DNA of 64,000 nt from Candidatus Aenigmatarchaeota archaeon (GTDB lineage Archaea; Aenigmatarchaeota; Aenigmatarchaeia; CG10238-14; SCSR01): contig JAWCSL010000001.1 in NCBI GenBank assembly GCA_039090665.1, forward strand, positions 23,308-87,307, given 5' to 3'. The notes beneath the pieces are model-generated. The model worked only from the letters and a program-made list of their open reading frames with translations, was not told the origin of the DNA and did no database searches. Position 1 is the stretch's first letter, and every line of letters starts with the position of its first letter. Positions 756-64,000 of the stretch are shown here, one piece after another. Both the position numbers and the translations under genes were made by a program.

Positions 756-3089
756 CTATTTCATATAGTAGGTCAATCTATTGTTTTTTTCTGAAATTTC
801 TGTTTTGAAAAATGGTAGCAAAGGCTTTAGCCTTTCTCTTAAATATTCTCCATAAAACCTTCCCTCGATTTTGGTTCCAGAATTCTCTGAAAAATCTATC
901 TTTTCACCTTCAATCACATAAAAGTCAATAAAACCTGCCGGATATTTCTGATAAATTTTTCTATATTCCTCGTAGGCCTTTTTAATTATCTCTAGTTTAA
1001 AGATTTTTTTCCTGTATTCTTCTGGCTTCTTGCTTAACTTGCCACTAATTTTGTAATGTTCTCTTGGATATTCCAAGTTTTCTATTTTCTTCAATTCCTC
1101 TTTAAATGTCAAAAAGGCTTTATTCAAACCATACTTTACAAAATCTTCAATTATTTTTTCTTCAGCTTTTCTCACAACTATTGGATCTGACTTACTTGCT
1201 CCCCTCCAACCTATTTTTATTATTCTTCCACTTTCTGTAGCCAACGCATGTTTTTTATCCAGGGGAATAAAAACATCTGTATGCTTATTATAGCCGGCCA
1301 ATAAAGTCTTGTATTTTTCATTTAAATCTTTTGAAAAATTTCCTTGAATTTCAGAAATGAACATTCTTGACTTAAAAGGCGAAGAATAAATTACTTTGCA
1401 GCCATCAAATTCTCTATTCAAATTTTTGTAAATTTCAGAAAAAATTTTTAAAAGTTTATCAGAAATATTTTCATCCGTATAAGTTTTTTTTCCAAAATAA
1501 AGACAAGCGCTCACACAGTTTATAGAAAAAGAATATGGATCGAATATAATATTTTTTCCATCTTCGTCCACACCGTAAACTTCTATTTCTTCTTTAAATT
1601 TAATCATTTTTTCGAAAACAGAAGAAATATATGGCCCAAAGAATTCTTGATTTTCTAAGATTACTTTGGGTGCAAAACCAACAAATGGATAAACCCACTT
1701 TCCTTCTATTCTTTCTCCATAATTTTTTGTGAAAATTTTTTCATACGCTCTTATAATCCTTTCCTTTTCTTTTTTTAAACTAGTGTAAGATTTAGTTATT
1801 TTGGGAAAGATTTTGTTCTGAACAAACTCAGAATTGAGAATAGCTTCACCTATATCTTCCATGACTTTTGAAAAAACGTTTTTAATGTCAATTGAATACA
1901 AAATTGGTAGAGCCAAAAAACCCAAATCAAACAATAAAAATTTACTAAGCTTCAAGTGAGCTTCGGCATCTTGAGAATTGTGAATTATTGTTTCAACAAT
2001 TTCTTCTTTAAAATTATGCACATCTAAAGAATCTCTTATTTTATTGTAAATCTCGAAGTTTTTATAATCAGTTTTTTTAAGGGTTTTTTTATCTCCTAAG
2101 AAAAATTCTAACATATCCTCAAGGCTTCTTATTTCTGGATGCAAAAACTTGCAAGTGTAAAGAGAATCTTCAGAAGGAATTATACCTTCAGATGTCACAA
2201 TTTGTATCGTTGGTATAAATCTGTAATAAACTCTAATATCAAACTTATCTGTTGGTCTTTCTTTTATTGATGGAAATGCTTCGCGATCTTTATGTTTTTC
2301 GAGAATTGAAGAACCATGAATAATTTCTATATCTGCTTTCTTTCTGTATTCATAAATTTTTCTAATCAATGTCTTTTCATCAGGAACTATTTCGATATCA
2401 ATTCCATAAGGTTTTAAAACTTTCTTGAAATCATCCAAGAGTTTTTGATTCTCATTTACTACAAGTGTTTTTGAAAAACCGTCACTACTTTTGACAGTAG
2501 CAATTACTATCTTTCCATTGGAAGTTTCATAATCGACTGTGAATAAAACCAACTCCTTTTCCAATTCTTTAAGTTGTTTAATTACATCTTTCCTATTTTC
2601 TGGAAAATCTTGAGAAAATTTAATTAGCTTTCTATCTTTTCCACATTCCTCATAACATAAGCGTGTTTTTAGATAATAACCAATTTTTTTAGAAAAAACT
2701 TCTTTTTCTAATTTTGAAAGGAAATGTTCTTGTTTTCTTGAATCCGAGACCCTATCTTCTATCCCAATTATTCCTTGAATCGAGTTAAGTTTAAGTTTCA
2801 ACTCTTCCATTTCTCTTCTTTTCCCTTCAAAATAAAAAGATATCAGAGAAGCTTTCTTTGGGTTCATCATGTTGTAAATTACATCATCAATAACTAGCAA
2901 ATCCTCAAAATCTCCTAACTTTCTTATTTTTTCCAAAATTTCCTCCTTTTTTTCAGGATCAACAAAAACTCTAATTCTTTTCTTAAATTCTTCTTTGACC
3001 AAAAGAGGTTCTTTGTTTTTGAAATAAAAACAAACTTCATTTTTTCTTATGGCTATGCCTATCGGCCCATAAACATCAATTTCTTTCAT
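756..3089 (-). CDS. Large (~778 aa) protein with a family-B DNA polymerase-like layout but degenerate exonuclease/polymerase motifs (possibly an inactivated PolB paralog)
   Basis: The start is re-placed at the ATG at 3089 (MKEIDVYGPIG…) to avoid overlap with the divergent gene at 3136. An ExoI-like LFTVDYETSNGKIVIAT resembles FDIET. An ExoII-like region, EKTLIRKIYEYRKKADIEIIHG, lacks YNGxxFD. A motif-A-like EDSLYTC replaces DxxSLYPS, a motif-B-like KVILENQEFFGPY replaces KxxxNSxYG, and a motif-C-like VYGVDEDGKNIIF replaces YGDTDS. The gene certainly codes for protein; the PolB homology is inferred by eye. Confidence 0.4.
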   Translation of the reverse strand: MKEIDVYGPIGIAIRKNEVCFYFKNKEPLLVKEEFKKRIRVFVDPEKKEEILEKIRKLGDFEDLLVIDDVIYNMMNPKKASLISFYFEGKRREMEELKLKLNSIQGIIGIEDRVSDSRKQEHFLSKLEKEVFSKKIGYYLKTRLCYEECGKDRKLIKFSQDFPENRKDVIKQLKELEKELVLFTVDYETSNGKIVIATVKSSDGFSKTLVVNENQKLLDDFKKVLKPYGIDIEIVPDEKTLIRKIYEYRKKADIEIIHGSSILEKHKDREAFPSIKERPTDKFDIRVYYRFIPTIQIVTSEGIIPSEDSLYTCKFLHPEIRSLEDMLEFFLGDKKTLKKTDYKNFEIYNKIRDSLDVHNFKEEIVETIIHNSQDAEAHLKLSKFLLFDLGFLALPILYSIDIKNVFSKVMEDIGEAILNSEFVQNKIFPKITKSYTSLKKEKERIIRAYEKIFTKNYGERIEGKWVYPFVGFAPKVILENQEFFGPYISSVFEKMIKFKEEIEVYGVDEDGKNIIFDPYSFSINCVSACLYFGKKTYTDENISDKLLKIFSEIYKNLNREFDGCKVIYSSPFKSRMFISEIQGNFSKDLNEKYKTLLAGYNKHTDVFIPLDKKHALATESGRIIKIGWRGASKSDPIVVRKAEEKIIEDFVKYGLNKAFLTFKEELKKIENLEYPREHYKISGKLSKKPEEYRKKIFKLEIIKKAYEEYRKIYQKYPAGFIDFYVIEGEKIDFSENSGTKIEGRFYGEYLRERLKPLLPFFKTEISEKNNRLTYYMK

Positions 3090-3135
3090 AAAATCTACAA
3101 AATGACTTAAATATTTAAATTCTATTTGAATTTTT

Positions 3136-5226
3136 ATGCTGAAAATTAGTTTTACTTCGAGCAAAAGAGTGATAAGAAATCTTTTGGAAGTCGAAGGTCC
3201 ACGCTTATATTGTCTTGCAGTTGACACTTTCAAAGGAGAATATGATAAAAATCTTGCTTTATCTACGTTGGAATTCTTAGAAAAAGAGTTATACTCGAGA
3301 AAAGAAAAAGTTGAATTCTTGAGAAATTTGAATGAAGAAATAAAAAAATTTGAACTTAAATCACCAATTGTCTTATACACTGAAAATTCTTATCCTTATT
3401 CATATTACTTTAGAAGAGAAAAAGAAAGAATAGTTCCAATAAAAAACATAAGAGGTGTTCCACTTGAAAATACAGAATGGATACCCAAGACTTATGAAGA
3501 CTTGAGCTCTAGAATTAATCCTTCTCTAGACATTCTTTACAAAATAATAAACTCTTACAGAAAGGGCAATAAGCCACTGAATTCGATCATGACTATAGTC
3601 CTAGTTACACCTATAGGTCTAATTCCATTCAGTTGCAAAAATTTTGAACCATTGATAAAAATTCAACCGTTTTCAATTATTGATGTAACTAATTACGAGG
3701 CTGTAGAAAAATGGAGCAGAAAAATAAGATTAAGATCAGAATTAATGGGTGAAATTCCTCCTAAAGATTCTAATTTAGAGGCCACAGCATTTGAGTTATA
3801 TTATAACGGAAAAACCAAACCAATAACCTGGGGAAAAATTGAAAAAATTTGTAGCAAGATTCTACTTCGATATTTTATAAATCAGGCAGAAGATTTTATA
3901 CAAAAAAATACACAACAAACAGCAATTCTATTTTTCACAGGCAAAAAATATTTGAATGAGTTTAGAAGAGTTCTTGAGGAGTACAGACTTTATAATCCGA
4001 AATTGGACATAACAAAAGAGTTTTTAAAAAAGCATGCTGGAGATAAAGAATATATGTCATGGGGATTAGGCAGTTCAAATTTAATTGGATATTATTCTAC
4101 AGATGTATGTGGTGTGAGAAAATTTTATCCAGGAAAACTAGAAAGAACTATCAGGGATATTGAAGGAATAGAAAGGGGTGAAATTGTTTACAATTCTTCA
4201 TTGCTAGGTACTCCACCAAGAGATAGAAAATTGCTAAGGTTTTTCGAAATTTGGTTTGATGAAGATTTCAACAAAGAAGAAGTTTATGCCAAGCCTGTGG
4301 AATGTAAAAGAGGCAGTATTTTTTTTGATTTCAATGATAAAAATCTTTGCAGTTCTGAAAAATATTTAGAATGGAAAAAAAGACAAAAAGAAGAAGATGT
4401 GCAAGAATTAGAAAGATTCGTAAGAATTACAAATCCTCTGCAGCAATGGACAGGAATTGTCCAATTAATTCAAGAAAAAATAAAAAAAGAAATTTATCCT
4501 CTTGATTTAAATAGTAAAGTAAGAGAAGATGGATCTTATGATTACTCTTTCAGTAAATTTAACAAAACTCCTCTGGAGAATGCTTTAGAAGATTTGGGTT
4601 TAACAAGAGAGAAAGAAACGGAAGAAGTGGTAACAGCCTTAGGAATAAAATCCACACTACAAAAACTCGCCAAAATTGGAAAACTAATCCACGATGCCAG
4701 AAGATTTTGTACGATAAGTAAACAAAACTTAATTAACTCCACAGAAGTACCACTCCTCTTAAGCATTGGAAATTATACCTATGGTGATTTCAAAATATTT
4801 GGGATTGTGGATTTTTTAGGAAGAACAGAAGATGGTAAATGTCATATTTGTGATACAAAATTGGAAGCGTCTTTTTCACCTACTAGAGGTCAAAGATACC
4901 AAGTATTAGCAGCAGGTATGGCAATCGAACAGAATTACAATATACGCTTCGATAGCGGAAGCAATTATTATCATACTAGTGTTTTTAGAGAAGGCATTCT
5001 TTTTACTTATTCCTATTTCCCACAAAAAATTCCGGATATTGTGAATGATATGATAGAACAAGTTTACGACTATCATAGAATCATGGATTGTATAAATTCA
5101 AACAATCTAAATCGTATACCGGAATACTTTAAAAAATATTTTATGAGCAAAAAGAGGATGGTAAAGACAGAAAGGTTAGAAAATGTGAGAAAAATTATAG
5201 AAGAGAAACTTTGTGTCCAAGTTTAA
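3136..5226 (+). CDS. Hypothetical 696-aa protein, divergently transcribed from the PolB-like gene
   Basis: A long open frame with consistent AT-rich codon usage. No motif is recognised. A Cys pair (GKCHICDTK) occurs near the C-terminus. Confidence 0.6.
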   Translation: MLKISFTSSKRVIRNLLEVEGPRLYCLAVDTFKGEYDKNLALSTLEFLEKELYSRKEKVEFLRNLNEEIKKFELKSPIVLYTENSYPYSYYFRREKERIVPIKNIRGVPLENTEWIPKTYEDLSSRINPSLDILYKIINSYRKGNKPLNSIMTIVLVTPIGLIPFSCKNFEPLIKIQPFSIIDVTNYEAVEKWSRKIRLRSELMGEIPPKDSNLEATAFELYYNGKTKPITWGKIEKICSKILLRYFINQAEDFIQKNTQQTAILFFTGKKYLNEFRRVLEEYRLYNPKLDITKEFLKKHAGDKEYMSWGLGSSNLIGYYSTDVCGVRKFYPGKLERTIRDIEGIERGEIVYNSSLLGTPPRDRKLLRFFEIWFDEDFNKEEVYAKPVECKRGSIFFDFNDKNLCSSEKYLEWKKRQKEEDVQELERFVRITNPLQQWTGIVQLIQEKIKKEIYPLDLNSKVREDGSYDYSFSKFNKTPLENALEDLGLTREKETEEVVTALGIKSTLQKLAKIGKLIHDARRFCTISKQNLINSTEVPLLLSIGNYTYGDFKIFGIVDFLGRTEDGKCHICDTKLEASFSPTRGQRYQVLAAGMAIEQNYNIRFDSGSNYYHTSVFREGILFTYSYFPQKIPDIVNDMIEQVYDYHRIMDCINSNNLNRIPEYFKKYFMSKKRMVKTERLENVRKIIEEKLCVQV

Positions 5227-7851: not shown

Positions 7852-8014
7852 ATTTTTTAATAATTTTTTAATGTTATAAAGTTTTTTATAATGGTTTAAA
7901 GTTTTTAAACCCTTTTTTTCTTCTCGAATTCAAACCATTCAACAAAAAATTTTAGGTTTGTTTTTTATGCTATGCTCTCAATTTATTTTATTGGTTTTTG
8001 AGAGGAGCGAGAAG

Positions 8015-8344
8015 ATGAGAATTCAAGAAATTTTCAAGAAGTACGACATAAGGGGCTTATTTCCAGAAGAAATCAATTCAAGAGTTGCTTTCAAGCTTGG
8101 AAGAGCTTTTGGAAGTTTTCTTGGCAAAGGTAAAAAAATTGTGGTTGGAAGAGACAACAGGAAAAGCAGCGCGCTACTGAAAAATTCTCTTGTTGATGGT
8201 TTGATTTTAAGTGGTTGTGATGTTATTGACATAGGTCTTTCAACACCAGATATGGTCGATTGGGGTACAAAGAGCTTGAAAGCTGACGAGAGAGCTGATT
8301 TTGAAATCAATAAATTCGACGAGATTATTACATTACTTTTTTGA
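8015..8344 (+). pseudogene. Truncated N-terminal fragment (~109 aa) of a phosphoglucosamine/phosphomannomutase (GlmM/ManB family)
   Basis: MRIQEIFKKYDIRGLFPEEINSRVAFKLGRAFGSFLGKGKKIVVGRDNRKSS…ILSGCDVIDIGLSTPDM matches PGM/PMM domain I. The frame stops before the catalytic Ser loop (GIMITASHNP), and glmS begins 12 nt downstream. Confidence 0.5.
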
Positions 8345-12437: not shown

Positions 12438-12544
12438 GCTGGCGTGGATTAGCCTGGCTAAATCGCGGCGCTCATAGCATCTATGAGCTTTGATAAAGGA
12501 TGAAAGAAACGCCGAGATCGCGGGTTCAAATCCCGCCGCCAGCA
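12438..12544 (+). tRNA. tRNA-Met (anticodon CAT; could also be tRNA-Ile2) with a ~32-nt intron at the canonical 37/38 site
   Basis: The cloverleaf was folded by hand. The acceptor stem is GCTGGCG/CGCCAGC, and the D-arm is GATT…AATC. The anticodon stem-loop is CGGCG-CTCATA[intron GCATCTATGAGCTTTGATAAAGGATGAAAGAA]A-CGCCG. The T-arm is GCGGG-TTCAAAT-CCCGC, the discriminator is A, and no CCA is encoded. Confidence 0.75.
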
Positions 12545-15398: not shown

Positions 15399-15562
15399 CT
15401 GAGTTATATTATTTATTTGCTCATGGGTCTTGGCGTTGGGCTTTTGATCAAGTCAAACAAGACATGAGATGAAATAGCCTATTCTGACTCATGAGATATT
15501 GGCCTGAAGTGAAAGAGCTTCAGGTAGGTTGATTGGTGAAACCTAGAGGTAGGGCCCGCCAA

Positions 15563-17298
15563 TTCTGGTTGATCCCGCCAGAGGCCACTGCTATCCGGCT
15601 TCGACTAAGCCATGCGAGTCGAGAGGGGAAAGCCCTCGGCGCACTGCTCCGTAATACACAGTCAACCTACCCTTAGCTGGGGGATAATCCCGGGAAACTG
15701 GGGCTAATACCCCATAGGTGCTAGGTACTGGAAGGTCCTAGCGCCGAAAGCTCCGGCGGCTAAGGATGGGACTGTGGCCTATCAGCTTGTTGTGGAGGTA
15801 AAGGCTCCACAAGGCGATAACGGGTACGGGCTATGGAAGTAGGAGCCCGGAGATGGACTCTGAGACATGAGTCCAGGTACTACGGTACGCAGCAGGCGCG
15901 AAAACTTCTCAATGCTCGCAAGAGCGAAGAGGGAAGCCGGAGTGCCCTTGCTCTGCAAGGGCTTTTGCGGTCTGAAAACGGGACCGCGAATAAGGGGTGG
16001 GTAAGACGGGTGCCAGCCGCCGCGGTAATACCCGCGCCCCGAGTGGTGGCCACGATTATTGGGCCTAAAGCGTCCGTAGCCGGTCTGGTAAGTCCTCAGT
16101 GAAATCCTCTAGCAAACTAGAGGGCTTGCTGGGGATACTGCCAGACTTGAGACTGGGAGGGGGCAGGGGTACTCCCAGGGTAGGGGTGAAATCCTGTAAT
16201 CCTGGGGGGACCACCTGTGGCGAAGGCGCCTGCCTGGAACAGGTCTGACGGTGAGGGACGAAAGCTAGGGGAGCGATCGGGATTAGATACCCCGGTACAC
16301 GAGGTTGGGTATCTTCTGATTTAAAGATGAAGAAAAATCCCAACTCAAGCTAGGATTTCCTAACTCGTGCGGGAAAGTCCTAGCCGTAAACGATGCCCGC
16401 TTGGTGTTGCAAGCTTCTCGGGAGCTTGCAGTGCCGAAGCGTAGGTGTTAAGCGGGCCGCCTGGGGAGTACGCCCGCAAGGGTGAAACTTAAGGGAATTG
16501 GCGGGGGAGCACACAAGGGGTGGGCGTTGCGGTTCAATTGGATTCAACGCCGGAAATCTTACCAGGGCCGACGGCAGGATGAAGGTCAGTCTGAAGGGCT
16601 TACCAGACGAGCCGAGAGGTGGTGCATGGCCATCGTCAGCTCGTACCGTGAGGCGTGCGCTTAAGTGCGTTAACGAGCGAGACCCACACCCCATGTTGCT
16701 AACTGCTTCTCCGGAAGCAGTGCACTCATGGGGGACCGCTGGCGATAAGCCAGAGGAAGGAGTGGGCGACGGTAGACAGGTAAAAGGCTCAAGACCGATT
16801 CATGTGAAAAAAAGATGAGCATGAATATCGCCCAGAGCCGTACATGTCTTTTACCTGACCGAAGTCCGTATGCCCCGAATGCCCTGGGCCACACGCGACG
16901 CACAATGCGCGCCACAATGGGATGCGACCCCGAAAGGGGAAGCAAAGCCCCTAAAAGCGCGCTCAGTTCGGATCGAGGGCTGTAACTCGTCCTCGTGAAG
17001 CTGGAATCCCTAGTAAGCGAACGTCATCATCGTTCGCTGAATACGTCCCTGCTCCTTGCACACACTGCCCGTCAAGCCAATCGAGCGGAACTCCATCGAG
17101 GCTTGCGATGAGCAAGTCGAGTTGGAGTTCTGTGAGAGGGGCTAATCTTGGGGGTCCAGAAAAAAATAATATGAAAGAATTGGCTTGACTCTGATGTGAT
17201 GATGAGATGGAGGTGAGTTGATTGCTTGTATGGACCTCCCAAGAGCCTAAAGTCGCCACAAGGTAGCCGTACGGGAACGTGCGGCTGGATCACCTCCT
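15563..17298 (+). rRNA. rrs: 16S rRNA (~1736 nt, unusually long; three ~70-90-nt insertions)
   Basis: The 5' end is ATTCTGGTTGATCCCGCCAGAGG and the 3' end is GCGGCTGGATCACCTCCT. The GC-rich block stands out in an AT-rich genome. Insertions relative to the archaeal consensus lie at about 16298-16376, 16776-16863 and 17159-17230. Confidence 0.9.
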
Positions 17299-17525: not shown

Positions 17526-19544
17526 TCAAGCAAGAATAGCATATCTAGCGATCAAAGAAGCAAAGACAGAAGCTGTTAAAGACATGACTGTTATCATTGT
17601 GTTCAAACTTGGTCCTGCTGTGTCCTTGAAAGGATCACCAACAGTATCACCAACAACAGCAGCCTTATGAGCTTCTGAACCTTTTCCACCAAAAGCCCCT
17701 TCTTCTATCAGCTTCTTAGCATTGTCCCAAGCTCCACCAGAATTTGCCATGAAAAGAGCAAAAATTATTCCTGTGATTATACTTCCTGCTAAAAAGCCCG
17801 CTAAAGCCTCTTTTCCCAAAATGAAGCCAACAAGCAAAGGTGCAGCTATAGCAAGCAAACAAGGAAGCATAAGCTCTCTTAAAGCACCTTTAGTTGCTAT
17901 GTCCACGCATTTGGCATAATCAGGTTTAGCTTTTCCTTTCATCAATCCAGGAATTTCTTTAAATTGCCTTCTCACTTCTTCTATCATACGAAAAGCATTT
18001 CTCCCTACTGCCAAAATCAATAAAGCCGAAATCACAGGAGGCATCATGCTACCAATAAAAGTCCCAACTATAACCTTAGGCTCCATCAAGTTTATTGAAA
18101 ACAAACCAGTAGTCAAATCTTTCCTTATTTCAACAACTTCAGCGTAAGCCCCAAGCAAAGCCAAAACTGTTAAAGCTGCAGCACCAATCGCGAAACCTTT
18201 TGTTATTGCTTTTGTTGTATTTCCCAAAGCATCAAGTCTGTCTGTAATTTCCAAGACTTTGCCTTTCAAACCAGCTTGTTCCGCTATTCCTTTTGCATTA
18301 TCGACAATTGGACCATAAGCATCAGAAGAAATTATCATTCCAACTATTGCTAACATACCCACTGCTGCTATAGCCACACCATAAAGATTACTTACACCGA
18401 AAGCCCCTGCAAGATGCCAAGCTGCAAGCATTGCTACACAAATTCCGATGATTGAAGGTACAATGCTCAAGATTCCATAAGAAAAGCCTGAGAGGATGTT
18501 GATAGCAGCTCCTGTTTTTGCAGCTTCTGCTGTTTTTTTCACAGGAGCTTTATCGATTGATGTATAGTAGTTTGTTGTTATTCCTATAATCATGCCAGAT
18601 ATAAGTCCAGCTAAAGTTGGTAAGAGAACACCAAAAGTTTGGTTTCCAAGTTCAAGAGCTTGAATCACAAAAAATGTTAAAATTGCAAAAATAAAACAAG
18701 TGGAAAAGGTTCCAACATTCAACGCAAGATTAGGGTTCTTTTTCTTGGCCAAATTGACGAAAATTAAACCAAGAAGAGAGGAAAAAATCCCAGCAGCTGC
18801 TATCAACAAAGGCAAGAAGATAAAGCTTGGAGCAATTGCTTTCCCAATTATCATGGCAGCTATGATGCTTGCTATGTAAGAATCTATCAAGTCAGCACCC
18901 ATTCCTGCAACATCACCCACATTATCACCCACATTATCAGCAATAACAGCAGGATTTCTTGGGTCATCTTCAGGAATTTCCATTTCCACTTTTCCCACCA
19001 AATCAGCTCCAATATCTGCTGTTTTAGTGTAAATGCCACCACCAGCTTTTGCAAACAAAGCCAAAGCACTTGCACCAAAGCTGAAACCCAAAACAATCTC
19101 AGGATCTTGGTAAATTTGGTATAAAATGCTTATGCCAAGCAAAGCTATGCCAACTATCATTAAACCCATGATGGCCCCACCATAAAAACCAACAGAAAAA
19201 GCTTTTGCTAATCCTTTTCTTGCTGCATTTGTAACCCTAACATTTGTTTTAACTGCTGCCAGCATTCCAAAGTAGCTTGCTATAGCAGTGGAAAAAGAGC
19301 CAAGCAAGTAGGCTAGAGCTATGTCTGGGCTTAAGAAGAGAAAAATAAGAGTTGTCATGATGACAACGAAAATTGCCAAATAAAGATTTTGCCTCTTCAA
19401 GTAAGCTTTTGCTCCCACTTTTATCGCTTCAGAAATTTCTTCCATTTTTTTGGTTCCCGGGCTTTGTTTGCTCACATGGAAATACAAGTAACAAGCTGTG
19501 AAGATCGAAGCTAAGCCTGCGATTGTTGGGATTGAAGCAAACAT
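17526..19544 (-). CDS. hppA: Membrane-bound H+/Na+-translocating pyrophosphatase
   Basis: [36 protein letters not shown] and GGAWDNAKK are H+-PPase signatures, with about 15 TM helices. It lies on the opposite strand between 16S and 23S. Confidence 0.9.
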
Positions 19545-20479: not shown

Positions 20480-20551
20480 GGGCCGGTAGATCAATGGTAG
20501 ATCGCCTCGCTTGCAACGAGGAGGCTCCGGGTTCAAATCCCGGCCGGTCCA
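20480..20551 (+). tRNA. tRNA-Ala (TGC) with G3:U70
   Basis: The acceptor stem is GGGCCGG/CCGGTCC with a G3-U70 wobble, the Ala identity element. The anticodon loop is CTTGCAA. The T-arm is CCGGG-TTCAAAT-CCCGG and the discriminator is A. It sits about 300 nt upstream of the 23S processing stem. Confidence 0.85.
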
Positions 20552-20865: not shown

Positions 20866-24222
<3,357 letters not shown>

Positions 24223-37662: not shown

Positions 37663-38829
37663 TTATTTTTCTTCTTCCACTCCTTTTTCCTTCAAAACTC
37701 TAGCCAAATCATGAATAAGCCTTCTCACATGCTCCCTCATCTCATAAACATCCTTATCAGGAATTTCCGTTATTTTCTTCTCGTCAGCAAGCTTCTTCAT
37801 GTTCACGATTTTAGACCACACTTCAGCATAGTAGGGATCTATTAACTTAGAATCAATAAACTCTCTCTTAAAAGCTAAAGCAACTTCTTCCTCTTTTTCA
37901 GGCATTTTATTCAAACTCTTTAATGCAGTTATTGCAGCTTTGTGCATGACTTCATAAGTTCTTTCCAAAATCTTTTCTCTCTTTCTTATCTCCAAAGCAT
38001 TTAATAAGCTAAACATTTTGTTGACAAATTTTTCCGCTTTTTCAATCCACTCGTCCACAAACTTTCCTTCAACATCCATAAGTTCTTTGTGCTCTATTTT
38101 CTTCCTTATTTCAATTATTTCTTTCAGCCATTCAGCATATTCCGGTTCAAGAATCCCAGGTTCAACCAAAAACTTTTTCACATCATCATAAGCTTTACTT
38201 GGTACAGGAGGAGCCAAGCCCATGAACATCAAAACAGCTTGAGCTGTGTTGAGCATAGCATAATAACAATCTTCTGCAAGCATTAGCAACTTTACAGTTT
38301 TTGCTCTCATTAGCTTCTTGGGGGCACCTTCCATATAACTTTCTATTGCTTCTCTTGTTGCAGGTATTTTTCCCATTTCAAGAAGTCTTTTGATTGGCAA
38401 GAAGAAACCTGTATCATAAATAGCTATACCTTCTTTAATGAAGTTGTATATTATTGGGTGACAAACTCTTGCATAGTCCCAGAATTCAGTTAAAGTGTAG
38501 CTTGGTTGGATCGAAAGCTTGTCAGAAATCTTTTCAGCAATTTTTTCTAAATCCTCATCAATTTTTTCTTGAAGTTCTGTAGTGATTTCATGAGTTGTGT
38601 CGTCCAAAACAACAAAAATATCAATATCACTTTTTGGCTTGAATTCGTCCCTTGCTACAGAGCCCATCATGACTATGCATTTTATGTATTTTCCATATTT
38701 TTCCAAAACCTGCTTTGCAAATTCTTCCACTTCTTTAAGCCTTTGCTCCCTAGTTTCTGGCTTTTCTTCTTTTTTTGCTTCATCTTCCATTTTTCCCACC
38801 ATTCTTTTTCTCTTCAACAACTTTAGCAA
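37663..38829 (-). CDS. Pol-β-superfamily nucleotidyltransferase fused to a HEPN-like helical domain (paralog 1, 388 aa)
   Basis: GSVARDEFKPKSDIDIFVVLDD is the hG[GS]x9-13Dh[DE]h NTase motif. The C-terminal helical domain carries a HEPN-like YYAMLNTAQAVLMF segment and RTYEVMH (Rx5H). Confidence 0.55.
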   Translation of the reverse strand: MLKLLKRKRMVGKMEDEAKKEEKPETREQRLKEVEEFAKQVLEKYGKYIKCIVMMGSVARDEFKPKSDIDIFVVLDDTTHEITTELQEKIDEDLEKIAEKISDKLSIQPSYTLTEFWDYARVCHPIIYNFIKEGIAIYDTGFFLPIKRLLEMGKIPATREAIESYMEGAPKKLMRAKTVKLLMLAEDCYYAMLNTAQAVLMFMGLAPPVPSKAYDDVKKFLVEPGILEPEYAEWLKEIIEIRKKIEHKELMDVEGKFVDEWIEKAEKFVNKMFSLLNALEIRKREKILERTYEVMHKAAITALKSLNKMPEKEEEVALAFKREFIDSKLIDPYYAEVWSKIVNMKKLADEKKITEIPDKDVYEMREHVRRLIHDLARVLKEKGVEEEK

Positions 38830-40166: not shown

Positions 40167-41984
40167 CTACCTAAACTTTTCTCTTTTCCACTCTTCTATT
40201 TTTCCCTTCTCCACTGCAGCTCTTCCAAGGAAGCCATGTGTTTCTTCTGGAACCATTAACAATCCTCTTAAAGGATCGTAAGCGTGTTCTTTTATCACAG
40301 TTCTCTGTCTTTCTTCTGATGCTACTTCCTTTACATCTATACCGAAAAATTCAGGGTATTCAATTAGTTTTTCTGGAGGTATATCTTTTTCCAAAAACTT
40401 GATAATCAATTGCAATGAAATCACTGATTGTTGAAAACTTTCTGGTCCACCTCTTTCAAAAATTATGTAACAATCTTTATCTTTACCAAAACCTTTTTGC
40501 CTTAGTTTGTAGTACATTTCATACAAGTATTTTTGTTGGTCTGAACCAACTTCTATTGGTAAGTGGGCTGGGGCTAAAGTTGAAGGCCAACCTGCGTGTA
40601 TTACTCTAACATATTTGCCTCCGTCTTCCGGAAGCAATTCTATAACTTTTCCCGGATCTATTCTTAAGCTAAGCATGTGTTCAAAATCCATAGCAATTGC
40701 AAAAATATTTTTTCCTGCTTGTTTATTTGCTTCTTCAACCAAAAAGTAATACTGATAAGGATTAGCCAACCTAAGCCACTCTTCTATTCCTCTTCCTCCC
40801 ATTGGTGATTCTAAAGCGAAAATCATTCCATCTTCGTCCAAATATTTTTTCGGATCTTCATACTCTTTTCTTGTTGGGAAAAAATGGCCATAAATGTATC
40901 TTGCAGAAACAGCAGGAACCCAAATCTCATAAACTGTCCTAAAGTTGCCATCTTCTATCGTAAGCCTTTCTGGGCTTATCCCTTTTTTCTTCATCCATTC
41001 CTCTACGCTTATACCATCCCTTTTAGCAAAAAATCTTATGCTAGCATTCACTATTTTTTCCCACAAAGGATCTTTGTTTTCTTCCATCCATTTTGCAACG
41101 AAATAGTAAGCCCATCTCTCTGGGCCATAATGCAAATCTCTCGATTGAACCAGCGAAACAACATAATCCACAATATCAACAAAAGTTATTTCCAAAGATC
41201 TTCTTATTCCTTCATCAATCATATTTTTCAAAGCTTCTTCAGCTTCAACATACTTTTTCCCTCTGGATATTTCTTCACTTTGCACCCTGTTCATTATCCT
41301 ATCTTGCAAATATTCTTCAAAAGTTCTTCCTCTCAAGAGCTCGAGCCAGAAAAAATTTTGCGGTTTTATTCCTTTTTCCCTGAAAGCATTTTCTATATCT
41401 TTTTTGTCTATTTGTCCTGTCTCTTTCCCTTTTTCTTTCCAAATATTCATCAAAATCTCAATCATTTCTTTTGATTTGTTTTCTTTGTTTCCGCTAATCA
41501 ACCAATTTAAAAGCCAATTATTTTGAGTTAGAAATTCCCTGAAAGGATTTCCTTGAGGATCGACCAAATCACAAGACTGTAGAGTTCTTTCTAAAAGCCT
41601 GAAAGGTTCTGATTCAGAAGAATGAACTAAAACATATTTTGCTCCTATATCTTTTGAATGTTTCAAAATCAAAATGAGTCTTTCATGAGCCCTCTCATAT
41701 TCCATCTTTATCGCAGAATCGAGCTCAGCAGCTTCAACACCAAAAGCTCTTGTTTCGCTATGAATTCCAAATTCTATTCCAAGTTTTTCCTTAATATCTT
41801 TTTTCATCTTCTTTTCCAGCTCGGGCTCTTCAAATTCCGAAAGCGACTCTAAATCAAGCTGAACAAACTTCACACCTTTCGTTATTCCTGCTTGAGCTTT
41901 CTTGAACAATCCAGCTAGTTGAGGCTTTTCTTCCCCACCAGCAACCCCAAAAGCTCCGGTTGAAACCCCTAAGATATAACCCAT
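40167..41984 (-). CDS. Large hypothetical protein (605 aa), second gene of the cluster
   Basis: A long ORF with no recognisable motif. It begins MGYILGVSTGAFGVAGGEEKP. Confidence 0.55.
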   Translation of the reverse strand: MGYILGVSTGAFGVAGGEEKPQLAGLFKKAQAGITKGVKFVQLDLESLSEFEEPELEKKMKKDIKEKLGIEFGIHSETRAFGVEAAELDSAIKMEYERAHERLILILKHSKDIGAKYVLVHSSESEPFRLLERTLQSCDLVDPQGNPFREFLTQNNWLLNWLISGNKENKSKEMIEILMNIWKEKGKETGQIDKKDIENAFREKGIKPQNFFWLELLRGRTFEEYLQDRIMNRVQSEEISRGKKYVEAEEALKNMIDEGIRRSLEITFVDIVDYVVSLVQSRDLHYGPERWAYYFVAKWMEENKDPLWEKIVNASIRFFAKRDGISVEEWMKKKGISPERLTIEDGNFRTVYEIWVPAVSARYIYGHFFPTRKEYEDPKKYLDEDGMIFALESPMGGRGIEEWLRLANPYQYYFLVEEANKQAGKNIFAIAMDFEHMLSLRIDPGKVIELLPEDGGKYVRVIHAGWPSTLAPAHLPIEVGSDQQKYLYEMYYKLRQKGFGKDKDCYIIFERGGPESFQQSVISLQLIIKFLEKDIPPEKLIEYPEFFGIDVKEVASEERQRTVIKEHAYDPLRGLLMVPEETHGFLGRAAVEKGKIEEWKREKFR

Positions 41985-41994
41985 TTATTCACCT

Positions 41995-56924: not shown

Positions 56925-57509
56925 ATGTTTATAAAAGATTTTAGGAAAGAGGATAAACCTTTAGAAAGACTTGTAGAAAAAGGACCGGAAGCTTTAAGCA
57001 ACACTGAACTTTTAGCTATAGCTTTATGGAAGCTTAATAATTGTTCTGTTTTTGAAAAAGCGAGCGAAATTTTAAAGAAGCAAAATGTTAAAAGACTTTT
57101 TGAATGTTCTGTTGGTGAGTTGGAAAATTTGATTGGAGACAAAATTAAAGCTTGTCAAATTGCTTCATGTTTTGAATTGGCTAAAAGAGCTTTCTCTTAT
57201 GTTGAAGAAAAGCCTTTGATTGAAAGTCCAGAAGATGTTTATAGAATTTTAGGCCCGGAAATGCAAGGGTTAAAGCAAGAAGTGGTTAAAGTTGTTTTGT
57301 TGGATTCAAGAAATAGGTTAATTAAAATTGAAACTGTTTCGGTAGGAAGCTTGAATGAAAACTTGGTTCATCCTAGAGATGTTTTTAGAAAAGCTATAGA
57401 AAACAATGCTGCTTCTATTATTTTAGTTCATAATCATCATTCAGGAGATGTTGAAGAGAGCGAAGAGGATATAAAAGTTACTAAAAACATAATAAAAGCT
57501 GCATACTAG
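56925..57509 (+). CDS. radC: RadC-like JAB/MPN-domain protein
   Basis: LSNTELLAIAL is a helix-hairpin-helix-like N-terminus. HNHHSGDVEESEEDIKVTK is the JAMM motif (HNHPSGxxxPSxxD). The protein ends shortly after the motif and is slightly short for RadC. Confidence 0.7.
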   Translation: MFIKDFRKEDKPLERLVEKGPEALSNTELLAIALWKLNNCSVFEKASEILKKQNVKRLFECSVGELENLIGDKIKACQIASCFELAKRAFSYVEEKPLIESPEDVYRILGPEMQGLKQEVVKVVLLDSRNRLIKIETVSVGSLNENLVHPRDVFRKAIENNAASIILVHNHHSGDVEESEEDIKVTKNIIKAAY

Positions 57510-59727: not shown

Positions 59728-59825
59728 CCAGCCCGAAAGCCAAAATTTTTTCGATTAAAGCCGATTCCTTATATTTAAATCATCATGGATTTATAAAAAG
59801 CTATTTGTTTATAAAGATCCACAAC
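59728..59825 (-). promoter_or_regulatory. Putative CRISPR leader
   Basis: A 98-nt AT-rich segment lies between cas2 and the first full repeat. The degenerate repeat is at the opposite end of the array. Confidence 0.4.
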
Positions 59826-60089
59826 TTAGATAACCAAAGAAGGCTCTGCCTTTTTTATGCCTATATGTTCTTTTTGTAATACCTTGTCTGTTTGAAGTTG
59901 ATAGATAATAACTGAATCCTCATTTGCGTCTATTCTTTCTTTAATTCCAATTTCAACTTTCTTTAGTTCACTTTCAGTCAATTCTCCTTCAAAAACAGAA
60001 TTTTGAATCCAATTCAAATATTGTCTTAGAAATTGACACACTTTATTAACTCTTTCCACCGAAACATCATAAACTATGATTACATACAC
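59826..60089 (-). CDS. cas2: CRISPR-associated endoribonuclease Cas2
   Basis: 87 aa. MYVIIVYDVSVERVNKV… carries the conserved Cas2 N-terminal β-strand with Asp. It is adjacent to cas1. Confidence 0.85.
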   Translation of the reverse strand: MYVIIVYDVSVERVNKVCQFLRQYLNWIQNSVFEGELTESELKKVEIGIKERIDANEDSVIIYQLQTDKVLQKEHIGIKKAEPSLVI

Positions 60090-60090
60090 T

Positions 60091-61098
60091 CTACCACCAA
60101 ATTACAAATGGTTCATATTTTTTAACTCCAAGCAAATGTTTTATGAGCTTATAACACTCTAGTCTAATTAATCTTTGAAAAGATACACTTCTTCCCAAAT
60201 CTCTGTGTTTTATAGTAGTTTTAAGTTTTTCGTCATAGTGCTGTAAAAAAATCTTCTTTCCATTATTGTTAAGAAGAGTGTAGTTCAATTCCTTCATAAA
60301 ATGTTTTTCTTCAATTATTCGTTTGTTAATTAGCTTGAAGATAACCCTATCCGCTAATAAAGGTTTGAAAATTTCACTTAAATCTAAAGCTAAAGAAAAT
60401 CTCCTTTCGAATGGTTCATGTAAATAACTTATGGTTGGATTTAATTGTGTGTTGTAAATTTCTGTTAATATTGTGGAGTAAACCAAAGAATTGCCAAAGC
60501 TAATTAAGCAATTTATCATATTTTCCGGTGGCCTTTTTGTTCTTTTATCAAAATGGAACTTTTCAGGAAAAATTTTGTTAAAGCTTTGGTAATATGTATC
60601 CCAAATATTTCCTTCTATTGCCATAATTGCTGGAATATCATTCTGTTTTTCCAGTTCATTTAAAAGAAATTTAATTTTTTCTATTTCATCTTGCAATTCT
60701 CCTTTTGTTCTTTCATAATATTGTAAATTTTTCACAATATTCTGCCCGCAACCCTCAACAAATTTCTTTGCTAACTCTAACCTTTTCTCCTTGTTTAAAT
60801 AATACTCAACTTGTTTTACTAGTAAATATCCCGAAACCAAAGTTTCTCTTGGATATAAACTACCTTCATAAAAGCCATATTTATTAAAGAAATGAATCGG
60901 CACACCATACTTTGAAAGATAAGAAACTACGCCAGAAGAGAAAGTTACTCTTCCGTGAGCAAAAATTGCATAAATCTTGTTTATCGGCAAAATTTTCTTT
61001 TCTACCTCACCATTTTCATTCTTTTTAATAAAATAAACTGTGTTTTGTTTTCTTTTTAAAATTCCATTGCTAGTAATATAGTAATTTACCTTTCCCAT
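60091..61098 (-). CDS. cas1: CRISPR-associated integrase Cas1
   Basis: 335 aa. It has a Cas1-like layout with conserved E/H/E region candidates (…AIEGNIWDTYY…, …YLHEP…), and its stop abuts the cas2 start. Confidence 0.85.
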   Translation of the reverse strand: MGKVNYYITSNGILKRKQNTVYFIKKNENGEVEKKILPINKIYAIFAHGRVTFSSGVVSYLSKYGVPIHFFNKYGFYEGSLYPRETLVSGYLLVKQVEYYLNKEKRLELAKKFVEGCGQNIVKNLQYYERTKGELQDEIEKIKFLLNELEKQNDIPAIMAIEGNIWDTYYQSFNKIFPEKFHFDKRTKRPPENMINCLISFGNSLVYSTILTEIYNTQLNPTISYLHEPFERRFSLALDLSEIFKPLLADRVIFKLINKRIIEEKHFMKELNYTLLNNNGKKIFLQHYDEKLKTTIKHRDLGRSVSFQRLIRLECYKLIKHLLGVKKYEPFVIWW

Positions 61099-61121
61099 TT
61101 AATTGTTTATAAGTTTGTTAA

Positions 61122-61715
61122 CTATTTATTAATCCAGCATAATTCAAAGTAGCTACATTTTCTACAATACTTTTTCTTTTCTGGTTTTGGTGGTTTAGGT
61201 AAACAAACTATTCTTTTAATTTCTTGAAAAAGTTTTTGTAATTCATTTTCTTTCTCCGGAGTTAGCTTGACTTCAACAATTTTTCTTTTAGATGGATAAT
61301 TGATTATTCCTTCTGCGTTTTCGATCCCTTTCTCATGCTTAAGGTAGTAAAGATAATAAAGCATTTGATAATAGTGAGCCTCTTGAAATTTATCAGATTT
61401 TTTAATGTCATGAAGAATAAGTTTATCTCCCTTTTTGATAAAATCTATAGATATCTTCTGATCTATAAGTATGTCTTTCTCTATATCTTTAAATGCAATT
61501 TCATGTAATATTTTACCTAAAATTACAAGCTCAGATTCATGTTCCTGTGTAACATAATGAGAAAAATACCAAAGTTGTGTTTTACAATGAATGAAATAAC
61601 TCACCTGAACTCCTGTAAACAAAGCCTCTTCTTCAAATATTTTCTGAGAGTTTTGAGAAAAATTGTCTTGCTTCACTAAATCCATACACTTTTCTTGTTT
61701 TTTCTTTAAGCTCAT
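61122..61715 (-). CDS. cas4: CRISPR-associated exonuclease Cas4 (RecB-like nuclease with Fe-S Cys cluster)
   Basis: An N-terminal Cys (FIHCKTQLWY), a D…ILHDIKKSDK (D/ExK-like) motif, QEAHYYQMLYY (QxxxY) and the C-terminal CRKCSYFELC are present. The real start may be MDLVKQ at 61685. Confidence 0.8.
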   Translation of the reverse strand: MSLKKKQEKCMDLVKQDNFSQNSQKIFEEEALFTGVQVSYFIHCKTQLWYFSHYVTQEHESELVILGKILHEIAFKDIEKDILIDQKISIDFIKKGDKLILHDIKKSDKFQEAHYYQMLYYLYYLKHEKGIENAEGIINYPSKRKIVEVKLTPEKENELQKLFQEIKRIVCLPKPPKPEKKKYCRKCSYFELCWINK

Positions 61716-62643
61716 ATGATATTTTTAAATTTACAAGTTTATCTAGTAGTTCTCCGTTTACATATCCATTGAGAAAATAATATAAAAACTTATTCAAAAG
61801 AGAAGATGACAATTCCCTGTATTGTTTATCTTGAATATATGTAGAAAAAATGAATTTTACAATGAAAGGGTAATCTTCTCTTCCAGTTAAATAACCTCCA
61901 TACCATTTTGAAATAAAACTTTTCAATTTTGGAATAAAATACATTTCTTTTTTCTGTTTTGGAAGGTAACAAATTACTAATGTAACATCATCTCTTATGC
62001 CAATTTTTTCGAGTAAGGAGGGTATTCCCAGTTCTTCAACTTGTTTTTTCCAATTTTCTATTCCAAGAGATTCTTTTTTTATCCATGTAACAAATGATGA
62101 AATAAGAATGAAGGAATAAATAAATTCGTTAAGAAGAGGCAAAACCTTTATGCCAATATTGTTCATTATTTTTTTTAAATCAATACCCCCTTTTTCTTTA
62201 CCACTTGGAAAAATTAATAGTTCTTCATTAATTAGATATTCTCTAAATTTACTCCTTATTCTTTCATCCACATTATCTAAATTTACTATGTATTCACCGC
62301 TATAAATTCCAGAAATTATAAGATATAAAAATCTATAAATTTCGTCTTCACTCGGATTTTCTTTTCCAAGGTAGAAATTTGGTGCTTGGTCTGGAGATAT
62401 TATTGTTGGTATGAGCGACGCATCATATTTTTTATCTTCCTTTACACACTTTTCTATCAGTGATTTAAAAATATTTAGCATATTCTTTTCTAATTCACTC
62501 TCATGAACTTTCATTTTCCCTTTAATAATGTAATAACCTTTTCTTAATCTCTGTTGTAATAATCTTCTGACTATTGGTAGAGCATAACTTCTATTACTTT
62601 TTTCCTTTAAGAAATTTTCTAAAAGTTCTTTATAGTTTGTCAT
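61633..62643 (-). CDS. Uncharacterised 336-aa protein encoded between cas3 and cas4
   Basis: An ORF overlapping the cas3 stop by 4 nt (ATGA) and the cas4 5' end. It has no HD, RecA, RAMP or nuclease motif that I can recognise. Confidence 0.5.
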   Translation of the reverse strand: MTNYKELLENFLKEKSNRSYALPIVRRLLQQRLRKGYYIIKGKMKVHESELEKNMLNIFKSLIEKCVKEDKKYDASLIPTIISPDQAPNFYLGKENPSEDEIYRFLYLIISGIYSGEYIVNLDNVDERIRSKFREYLINEELLIFPSGKEKGGIDLKKIMNNIGIKVLPLLNEFIYSFILISSFVTWIKKESLGIENWKKQVEELGIPSLLEKIGIRDDVTLVICYLPKQKKEMYFIPKLKSFISKWYGGYLTGREDYPFIVKFIFSTYIQDKQYRELSSSLLNKFLYYFLNGYVNGELLDKLVNLKISYELKEKTRKVYGFSEARQFFSKLSENI

Positions 62644-64000
62644 ATTATTTCACTCCCTACTTCTCTAAAACCATAAAAACTATTGTAAATTTTGTCTTTT
62701 AAATCTACTATTGGAAGAGCTTTTCTTTCTTCGTCTCTTAAGTATTTGCGAACCCACCATATTGGAACCGGAACACTAACTTCTTTAAATTCTGCTAATA
62801 ATTTTCTTCTTTCATTAAAATTTTTATTTTTGAAGTCCTGACATAGAAGCTCTTCTATACATTTTTTAACTTCTTCGTCCTCTACACATTCAGGAGAAGG
62901 TATGATTAAAGTAGTGAAGCTATCCCTGTAACTTAATATTTTCGCCAATTCTTCTTCTGAAATATCAAGCGAAAAGAAAAATTGAAGGAGTTCTTCAAAT
63001 TGCTCCAAATTAACTTTTTTAGTCTCTCTTTGCAAAATTTCCAATAATTTATCATAAGTATATATTTCATCAAGATTTTTTAAAAGGTCAAACTCACTTT
63101 TTAAGTTATTACTTAATTCTTCAACTATTTTCTTAGCAATACATAATTCATCAGATGTATATGGATAGTATCGCTCATTCTCAATTTTTGGCTTAAAAAT
63201 TTTCACATTTACTTCTTCTGTTTTCACACCTCTTCTATTTACCCTTCCAAATCGTTGAATTAAAGAGGGAAGAGGGGCTAATTCTGTAAACATAAAATCA
63301 TAAGAAACATCTAATGAGACTTCGCATACTTGAGTTGTTATAAGTATGTGGGGTTTTTCTTTTAATTTTTCTATCTCATCCTCTTTTCTTTTTCTATCTT
63401 TATACATAAACCTTGCATGCAAAAGTAAAACATTTTCTTTTCCCACTTCTTTCACCAATTTTTCTGCAATTTCAATGGATTTTTCAACTGTATTTACAAC
63501 AACGATTACTTTCTTACCATCTTTAAAATTCTTAACTATATCATCAATATGGAGATCTAAGTCTTCGTCCAAATACTCGAACAATGCTCTCCTTTTTGCT
63601 TTATATCCATAGGAGAAATCTAGAAAAGAATTCTGAGTTAAATTTAGCTCACTTGCTAAGTATTTTTCTAAACCTTTCGAAAGAGTTGCAGACATAAATA
63701 GAACTTTGAAACTGTATATATTTTGAAATTTCTTAAGAAAGTACGTTAGAAGACTTAACATTAGTGGATTTAATAAATGTACTTCATCTAACACTATACC
63801 TGAATTTCTAAACATTACACGCTTTGTATAATATTTTCCAACCTGTAAAAATGATAGGAGAAATTGATCTACGGTAGTTATTACAAAGGGTTTTATGAAA
63901 TTTTCTATGAAAAACATGTTTTGTAAAAGATCTAAATCTTCTTTTACTTCAGTATCATAGAAATAGAAGTATTTTATCACATTCCTCCCAAAAACGTTTT
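62640..64000 (-). CDS. cas3: Cas3 helicase (partial; N-terminus beyond window edge)
   Basis: Motif Ia is TTVDQ, motif II is LDEVH (DExH), motif III is MSATL and motif VI is LIQRFGRVNRRG, followed by a C-terminal domain. The reading frame remains open to position 64000, and the track's 'M' at 63980 is a GTG. Confidence 0.8.
   Translation of the reverse strand, partial: NVFGRNVIKYFYFYDTEVKEDLDLLQNMFFIENFIKPFVITTVDQFLLSFLQVGKYYTKRVMFRNSGIVLDEVHLLNPLMLSLLTYFLKKFQNIYSFKVLFMSATLSKGLEKYLASELNLTQNSFLDFSYGYKAKRRALFEYLDEDLDLHIDDIVKNFKDGKKVIVVVNTVEKSIEIAEKLVKEVGKENVLLLHARFMYKDRKRKEDEIEKLKEKPHILITTQVCEVSLDVSYDFMFTELAPLPSLIQRFGRVNRRGVKTEEVNVKIFKPKIENERYYPYTSDELCIAKKIVEELSNNLKSEFDLLKNLDEIYTYDKLLEILQRETKKVNLEQFEELLQFFFSLDISEEELAKILSYRDSFTTLIIPSPECVEDEEVKKCIEELLCQDFKNKNFNERRKLLAEFKEVSVPVPIWWVRKYLRDEERKALPIVDLKDKIYNSFYGFREVGSEII

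Follow-up and report, generated by a model that had tools for sequence, protein, structure and literature searches.

A 64,000-nucleotide (nt) stretch of a metagenome-assembled genome (MAG) of Candidatus Aenigmatarchaeota (DPANN; contig JAWCSL010000001.1, positions 23,308-87,307; hereafter, the window) carries a pair of divergently oriented genes, one of which encodes a genuine, very diverged homologue of family-B DNA polymerases (PolBs) and the other a protein that ends in a nuclease domain of the RecB/Cas4/Exo5 type. The two genes, here called gene 1 and gene 2, represent a new family of inactivated PolBs and its likewise new nuclease partner, for which we infer a function in the replication or repair of host DNA. 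On balance, we take the gene 1 product to be a vertically inherited, lineage-specific, polymerase-dead PolB paralogue that arose from a PolB3-like ancestor and is functionally coupled to the gene 2 protein.

Gene 1 occupies positions 756..3089 of the minus strand, with its stop codon at 756-758 and an ATG at 3087-3089, and encodes 777 amino acids (aa) plus the stop. The mechanical open reading frame (ORF) extends further, to a GTG at 3380; the ATG was taken as the start because all homologues begin at the same Met. The first-pass annotation of the window had correctly placed the minus-strand ORF ending at 756, for which it gave a length of 778 aa, and the motif strings it quoted are present in the translation. 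Gene 2 occupies positions 3136..5226 of the plus strand and encodes 696 aa, and the gap between the two genes (3090..3135) is 46 nt long, both as previously described. The proteins are deposited at NCBI as "hypothetical protein" QXR09_01075 (gene 1) and QXR09_01080 (gene 2), each 100% identical to the translation from the window.

When the gene 1 protein was searched as a single sequence, no Pfam or NCBIfam family was found at E <= 1, and the PDB gave no relevant sequence match. The PolB families PF00136 and PF03104 did not match the window protein or its two distant full-length relatives P0014 and P0015 at E <= 1, and their gathering thresholds were not reached by any of the three. Fold and profile comparisons gave a PolB assignment. 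The best 50 Foldseek matches of the predicted gene 1 model were all PolBs (E = 1.5e-15), at a structure-based identity of approximately 12-15%, and DEDD exonucleases ranked next. The model is of low confidence in the palm region and at residues 259-340. In hhalign, comparison with an alignment of 24 Nanohaloarchaeal PolBs gave a probability of 94.5% and E = 8.3e-8, and residues 184-743 of gene 1 aligned collinearly with PolB residues 200-775; when the query profile was reversed or its columns were shuffled, E rose to 0.1-0.8. A profile built from 10 family sequences found 24 Thermococcales PolBs at the top of the PDB sequences (HMMER, E = 1e-5 to 7e-3), with profile positions ~530-711 matching Pfu residues 496-686, again collinearly. 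Reciprocally, a PolB hidden Markov model (HMM) matched gene 1 alone among all ORFs of the window, so that no other PolB was detected in these 64 kb.

The gene 1 protein has the collinear architecture of a PolB, namely an N-terminal domain, a 3'-5' exonuclease-like domain, palm-fingers and thumb. The N-terminal domain (residues 1-180; 2550..3089, minus strand, as for all gene 1 features below) is beta-alpha-beta-rich like those of PolBs, and it is followed by the exonuclease-like domain (residues 181-400; 1890..2549). Archaeal replicative PolBs of the PolB3 type, such as the Pyrococcus/Thermococcus Pol and the Nanohaloarchaeal PolB, were the only sequence-level matches outside the family, and judged by these alignments the protein is closest in sequence to PolB3-type enzymes. 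Besides the fold and domain order, features common to gene 1 and these enzymes are the ExoI DxE, the SLE..LG..K exonuclease element (PolB TLDLDSVAEEMLG, aligned with gene 1 RSLEDMLEFFLG), the YP of motif A, GF.P..L, the Lys-Lys of KxY, the thumb and a C-terminal tail resembling a PCNA-binding (PIP) box.

We mapped the catalytic residues of PolBs onto gene 1 using HMMER with PDB PolBs, hhalign and MAFFT, and the three maps were concordant. Motif A, which reads LDFRSLYP in PolBs (canonically DxxSLYPS), corresponds to I-E462-GKWVYP within RIEGKWVYPF (residues 460-469; RIEGKWVYPFV at 1680..1712, aligned with LDFRSLYPTV); the YP is kept, and the position of the catalytic Asp, 462, is occupied by E, K, Q or T across the family. 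Motif B (KILANSFYG in PolBs, canonically KxxxNSxYG) corresponds to S520-FSINCVSA within FDPYSFSINCVSA (residues 516-528; FDPYSFSINCVSACLYFG at 1491..1544, aligned with KILANSFYGYLGY). Here the Lys is replaced by S520, or by E in distant members, and Asn524 is retained in the close subgroup only. Motif C (VYGDTDS in PolBs, canonically YxDTDS) corresponds to IY568-SSPFKS within VIYSSPFKSRMF (residues 566-577; CKVIYSSPFKSRMFI at 1356..1400, aligned with VVYGDTDSLF), where both metal-binding Asp residues are gone and no conserved acid is found nearby. In the KxY region (IPLDKKHALATESGRIIKIGWRGASKSDP at 1170..1268, aligned with AKKKYALxxEDGxMKITGFEQVRRDWSP), PolB KKKYA corresponds to DK612-K613-HA, with Lys-Lys retained and Tyr replaced by His or Gln. 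This region leads into the thumb, which is the best-conserved part of gene 1 relative to PolB. In addition, motifs A and B lie closer together than they do in the PolBs used for comparison, by ~27 residues according to hhalign, and MAFFT shows ~34 residues missing after motif A. Since the motif A Asp, both motif C Asp residues and the motif B Lys are all substituted, the gene 1 protein is predicted to be polymerase-dead by every canonical criterion.

The first-pass annotation had proposed a very diverged PolB paralogue with degenerate catalytic motifs, and both proposals are borne out, as profile and fold searches find PolB homology and the triad is not intact in any of the three maps. On the other hand, most of the strings it had chosen for the individual motifs belong elsewhere. 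EDSLYTC (residues 307-313), given as motif A, was placed by the aligners in the exonuclease domain between ExoII and ExoIII, where in our own reading it corresponds to the PolB hDLY element. KVILENQEFFGPY (475-487), given as motif B, sits just after motif A at the PolB GF(F/I)PxL element, and YGVDEDG (505-511), given as motif C, falls in the fingers region. The one motif call that was correct is ExoI, DYET (186-189), which is homologous to PolB FDLE. Two further candidates picked by eye were also rejected: IIFDPYSF, tried as motif A, aligned in the motif B region, and YNKHTDV, tried as motif C, aligned in the segment preceding KxY.

The exonuclease domain differs from the palm in that part of its active site is kept, and the evidence here bears on a strong sub-alternative, in which gene 1 is a PolB-derived stand-alone 3'-5' exonuclease with a live site made up of D186, E188, E/D264 or D268, H370 and D374. 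Together with a 5'-3' nuclease of the Cas4 type, such a protein would form a DNA-end processing machine of two polarities. ExoI (VD186-Y-E188; FTVDYETS at 2520..2543) aligns with PolB FDLE, and its Asp and Glu are invariant in 10/10 family members, including those of only 28% identity. The ExoII signature YNGxxFD had been described as absent; a degenerate ExoII region can nevertheless be aligned (HGSSILEKHKD, residues 258-268; DIEIIHGSSILEKHKDRE at 2280..2333), in which G259-SSILEKHKD268 faces PolB GYNTDEFDF. The canonical Asp falls there on the variable position 266, and the acids 264 (E/D, conserved) and 268 (D, invariant) lie within two residues of it. A helix motif, H370-x3-D374-x3-H378 (IIHNSQDAEAHLKLS at 1944..1988), is invariant in the family as well, and spacing arguments favour H370-x3-D374 as the real ExoIII. 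However, both hhalign and MAFFT put ExoIII (YxxxD) at Y348, where the Asp is not conserved; the helix motif lies inside an alignment gap, and hhalign of the sub-region did not decide the matter, so that it may represent the genuine ExoIII or else a metal site specific to the family. The invariant polar residues of the family are densest in the exonuclease domain and, as noted, DEDD exonucleases rank directly behind PolBs among the fold matches. Against this, a profile restricted to the exonuclease domain matched no PolB or exonuclease in the PDB, and the model is of low confidence at residues 259-340. Exonuclease competence is thus possible, and a live exonuclease site is something that we would seriously entertain and at the same time regard as doubtful.

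At the C-terminus of gene 1, the tail SEKNNRLTYYMK (759..794) stands at a position equivalent to that at which the PolBs of our alignment A5 end in QSGLGRF, a PCNA-binding tail of the QxGLxxF type. The consensus in the close subgroup is K(N/D)xx(L/I)TxY(F/M), and in these close relatives the tail may represent a PIP box.

The partner was described in the first-pass annotation as entirely uncharacterised, which no longer applies to its C-terminal ~170 aa. The C-terminal part of gene 2 forms a PD-(D/E)XK nuclease domain of the RecB/Cas4/Exo5 type (residues ~505-670; 4648..5145, plus strand) with both the fold and the D...(D/E)xK...QxxxY catalytic motifs intact. Single-sequence searches of Pfam, NCBIfam and the PDB with gene 2 yielded no more than a faint Cas4 signal. 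Five close relatives of gene 2 were obtained in a word-indexed homologue search, and 3/5 members matched a Cas4 model, weakly, over this part (best E = 7.7e-6). The motif residues E537, D559, D573-T-K575 and Q589 are conserved, including in a ~25%-identical partner that covers them. Gene 2 was rejected as a CRISPR Cas4 (TIGR00372/PF01930) on three counts: the window protein scores 16 bits against TIGR00372, for which the cut-off is 65; it lacks the 4-Cys Fe-S cluster, since C525 is the only conserved Cys and the alignment shows no C-terminal three-Cys motif (CxxCx5C); and it has no cas neighbourhood. The similarity between gene 2 and the genuine CRISPR Cas4 of the same genome is marginal (E = 0.12). 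Compared with the nuclease domains of RecB, Cas4, Exo5, Dna2 and MGME1, gene 2 differs in having no helicase domain and no C-terminal 3-Cys Fe-S motif, and in carrying a unique N-terminal region of ~500 aa.

The family is small. A word-indexed search with gene 1 returned close relatives in eight clusters, and when 1.84 billion representative proteins were searched exhaustively with a profile, six matches were obtained, namely two of the close group, the two distant full-length proteins P0014 and P0015 (~28% identity), one fragment and one PolB. The last of these, the sole match from outside the family (E = 4.5e-4), is an intein-containing archaeal PolB (PF00136, 5.7e-65). A survey of 185,579 species genomes yielded only six loci, every one of them in an Aenigmatarchaeota MAG labelled "JZ-1"; the family is restricted to a handful of uncultured species of this phylum from hot springs. 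Intact gene 1 ORFs are conserved across at least eight lineages. A gene 2 homologue stands head-to-head with gene 1 in every locus that contains the gene 1 5' end (the window, L001/L002/L009, L003-L007, L008/L017, L014/L015, L016, and the distant L011/L012 and L013), and this pairing persists in the distant loci, whose two proteins share only 24-30% identity with their counterparts in the window. As a separate observation, the MAG JZ-1_201803_bins_66 carries two diverged copies of the pair (L008 on scaffold 9 and L009 on scaffold 4), 49% and 52% identical to the window protein; these are either paralogous modules or the product of a mixed bin.

The surroundings of the pair belong to the host core, with ArgRS on one side and RpoK, RpoN, PGM and S9 on the other. 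In the closer genomes (~50% identical), the pair lies between ArgRS and RpoK-RpoN-PGM, and in L013 (~28-30% identical) it adjoins RpoN/S9. In 6/8 lineages, gene 1 is directly followed by a gene of 501-522 aa resembling AEP primase-polymerases (L001:10307-11812; L016:5200-6681; L010:1193-2704; L011:4938-6506; L013:4490-6037), which has the motifs (D/E)xD, SGxxxH and hD and matches PF21686 with E = 3.6e-6, just under the cut-off. The window and the L003 group lack this gene, and RpoK comes directly after gene 1 there; no relationship was found between it and gene 2. The ancestral module may have comprised three genes, including the AEP-like one.

This context bears on whether the pair could be a mobile-element or anti-virus defence module, for instance casposon-like or Cas4-associated. 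The partner carries a Cas4-like nuclease, mobile elements of archaea often carry PolB genes (PMC4104785), the phyletic distribution is narrow, and a CRISPR-Cas locus is present in the same window. However, the position next to ArgRS and RpoK/RpoN is fixed in lineages of ~50% identity, and RpoN/S9 still lies beside the pair at ~28-30%. No integrase or Cas1 gene occurs near the pair, cas1 and the genuine cas4 being 57 kb away in the window; PADLOC and PHROG scans gave no match other than a weak one of gene 2 to a Cas4 model (E = 0.002), and no relatives of the pair were found in IMG/VR viral contigs. A casposon or other mobile-element PolB was therefore rejected as a candidate, and because of the fixed housekeeping synteny we regard a mobile or defence origin as quite improbable.

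The head-to-head genes had been proposed to be co-regulated from their shared gap, and conservation of the pairing across lineages, together with a palindrome centred in the gap in the five closer ones, agrees with this. The gap measures 46 nt in four lineages (window, L001, L003 and L016) and, by our count, 45 nt in the fifth (L008/L017). In its middle, 17 nt from each start codon in the window, lies the perfect 12-nt palindrome TTAAATATTTAA (3107..3118). It is kept in these five lineages, which share ~50% protein identity, and the flanks of 16-17 nt per side have diverged. It occurs at this place only in the 64-kb window (0.06 occurrences expected), and once per locus at the same place in nine related loci as well as in L016/L017. 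In both directions, the palindrome reads as a TTTAAATA/CTTAAATA box whose midpoint lies ~26.5 nt from the A of the start codon. Since this is the canonical distance between TATA box and start in archaea, we infer two overlapping, opposed TATA boxes that would drive two leaderless mRNAs.

The absence of a second PolB from the window raises the question of whether gene 1 could be an active DNA polymerase with non-canonical catalytic residues, perhaps even the replicase of its lineage. PolB2, with one motif C Asp, has been suggested to be perhaps not truly inactive (Kazlauskas et al., PMC7544198), and gene 1 has conserved acids in the palm and fingers, e.g., E509 and D517. Nevertheless, gene 1 has lost all three canonical carboxylates along with the motif B Lys, the residue aligned with the motif A Asp varies between E, K, Q and T, the motif C hairpin holds no conserved acid, and the region from motif A to B is shortened. 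Moreover, the family occurs in a handful of species, and the phylum uses a PolB-DP2CTD fusion with DP1 (PMC12680538), all of which makes such an activity very improbable. Lastly, the idea that the motif matches are due to chance and the ORF is unrelated or decaying, for which the missing Pfam and NCBIfam matches and the non-homologous positions of 3/4 motif strings in the first-pass annotation could be cited, is scarcely credible given the strong fold and profile evidence, which survives the controls, and the intact ORF conserved in at least eight lineages. A pseudogene was likewise rejected, and the gene is considered to be functional because full-length orthologues down to 28% identity keep many invariant residues.

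Gene 1 can thus be compared with known PolBs and their inactivated relatives. Relative to the archaeal replicative PolBs, it replaces the Asp of motif A, the two Asp of motif C, the Lys, Tyr and Gly of motif B and the Tyr of KxY, has the deletion of ~34 residues after motif A (MAFFT) and gives no Pfam PolB match. With PolB2/Dpo2 it has in common that a conserved PolB paralogue has a disrupted polymerase centre, a presumed non-catalytic role in replication or repair, and a conserved partner gene adjacent to it. PolB2/Dpo2, however, has no clear ExoI counterpart and retains the distal Asp of motif C (Rogozin et al. 2008, PMC2527604), and its gene forms an operon with arCOG07300 (~90 aa) and an inactivated RadA (Makarova et al. 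2014, PMC4104785). None of these three published features is found in the gene 1 family: the pattern of loss is reversed, with ExoI invariant and both motif C Asp lost, and the neighbours are gene 2, ArgRS, RpoK/RpoN and, mostly, the AEP-like gene. PolB2/Dpo2 is also widespread and recognisable by sequence, whereas the gene 1 family is restricted to few Aenigmatarchaeota and invisible to Pfam. By these features, the two families appear to be distinct. The C-terminal module of Pol epsilon (Tahirov et al. 2009, PMC2669801) offers another likeness, in that a polymerase-dead PolB fold is kept as a structural element of the replication machinery. That module is joined in one protein to an active PolB and a Zn-finger domain, whereas gene 1 is free-standing and lacks a Cys motif at its C-terminus; neither the PDB sequence matches nor the fold matches of gene 1 included a C-terminal module of Pol epsilon.

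If gene 1 is a polymerase-dead PolB paralogue as we propose, its protein would serve to recognise DNA or a primer terminus without polymerising, and the PIP-like tail might tether it to PCNA. The gene 1 and gene 2 products would act as a complex in which the nuclease domain of gene 2 supplies catalysis, and the likely setting would be a replication-associated or repair reaction of the host, for example one that processes flaps or ends or restarts forks. The compact promoter would provide for co-ordinate control of the two mRNAs. Aenigmatarchaeota are reported to have no DP2 and to use a PolB-DP2CTD fusion together with DP1 (PMC7544198, PMC12680538), and an accessory role of the gene 1 protein fits this replicase.

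Several points weigh against this proposal. The palm region of the model is of low confidence, and structurally it may leave room for substitute catalytic residues. Divergent neighbours need not form a complex, and the interaction of the two proteins would have to be deduced from their pairing. That the same genome contains an active replicative PolB is taken from the literature on the phylum (PMC7544198, PMC12680538). The N-terminal ~500 aa of gene 2 had no PDB or Pfam match, even with profiles that included the distant partners, and in the AlphaFold2 (AF2) model of gene 2, which is poor (predicted local distance difference test, pLDDT, 49), this part is uninterpretable. Finally, the two most distant lineages have gaps of 39-40 nt and lack the palindrome.

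Inactivated PolB paralogues, such as PolB2 and the C-terminal half of Pol epsilon, figure in discussions of how archaeal and eukaryotic replisomes evolved. The gene 1 family adds a separate one, which has diverged to the point of being labelled "hypothetical" by standard annotation. The phylum in which it occurs has an unusual replicase to begin with, DP2 having been lost and the fusion protein pairing with DP1. The obligate nuclease partner of gene 1 makes for a concrete biochemical hypothesis that can be tested. The general importance is limited, as the family belongs to few uncultured hot-spring species. A bolder version, unlikely as a whole, would see in the locus a new archaeal machine for processing DNA ends or forks. 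A dead PolB scaffold with a working DEDDh-like 3'-5' exonuclease site and a PCNA-binding tail would recruit a Cas4-type 5'-3' nuclease and, in most lineages, the AEP primase-polymerase encoded downstream, all expressed from a palindromic, bidirectional, leaderless promoter. If true, this would be a case of an inactivated PolB serving as a replisome organiser, as in Pol epsilon, and an independent one because Aenigmatarchaeota already replicate with the eukaryote-like PolB-DP2CTD/DP1 enzyme.

Some other features of the window were recorded. A complete-looking CRISPR-Cas locus for adaptation and interference spans 57706-63980. It consists of an array of 30 repeats (CTTTCAATCCTACATTAGTCTGATTTTAAC; 57706-59727) and, on the minus strand, cas1 (60091..61098), the genuine cas4 (61122..61715), a 335-aa ORF that has no Pfam match (61633..62643) and a Cas3-type helicase gene that reaches the window end (62640..63980). 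A RadC-like gene is located at 56925..57509.

The rRNA genes are unlinked and oversized. The small-subunit (SSU) gene at 15562-17298 is 1737 nt long compared with a model of 1478 nt, and the large-subunit (LSU) gene at 20872-24215 is 3344 nt long compared with 2987; the extra ~260 nt and ~360 nt, respectively, suggest insertions or introns. Between the SSU gene and a tRNA-Ala gene (20480-20551), a 671-aa H+-pyrophosphatase is encoded on the opposite strand (17526..19544). Rfam additionally reported a tRNA of 107 nt at 12438-12544 (53 bits) that ARAGORN did not report; this probably represents an archaeal tRNA with an intron.

At 40167-43725, two large ORFs of 604 and 575 aa stand side by side on the minus strand, and neither matches a Pfam family at E <= 0.001. 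A short ORF at 7958-8344, directly upstream of glmS, contains an N-terminal PGM_PMM_I fragment only and is possibly a gene remnant; a full-length phosphoglucomutase gene lies beyond RpoN, outside the window, as seen in L014. The 387-aa protein encoded at 37663-38829 has an MNT-like nucleotidyltransferase domain and, at its C-terminus, a weak HepT-like match, and could be a fused module of the toxin-antitoxin type.

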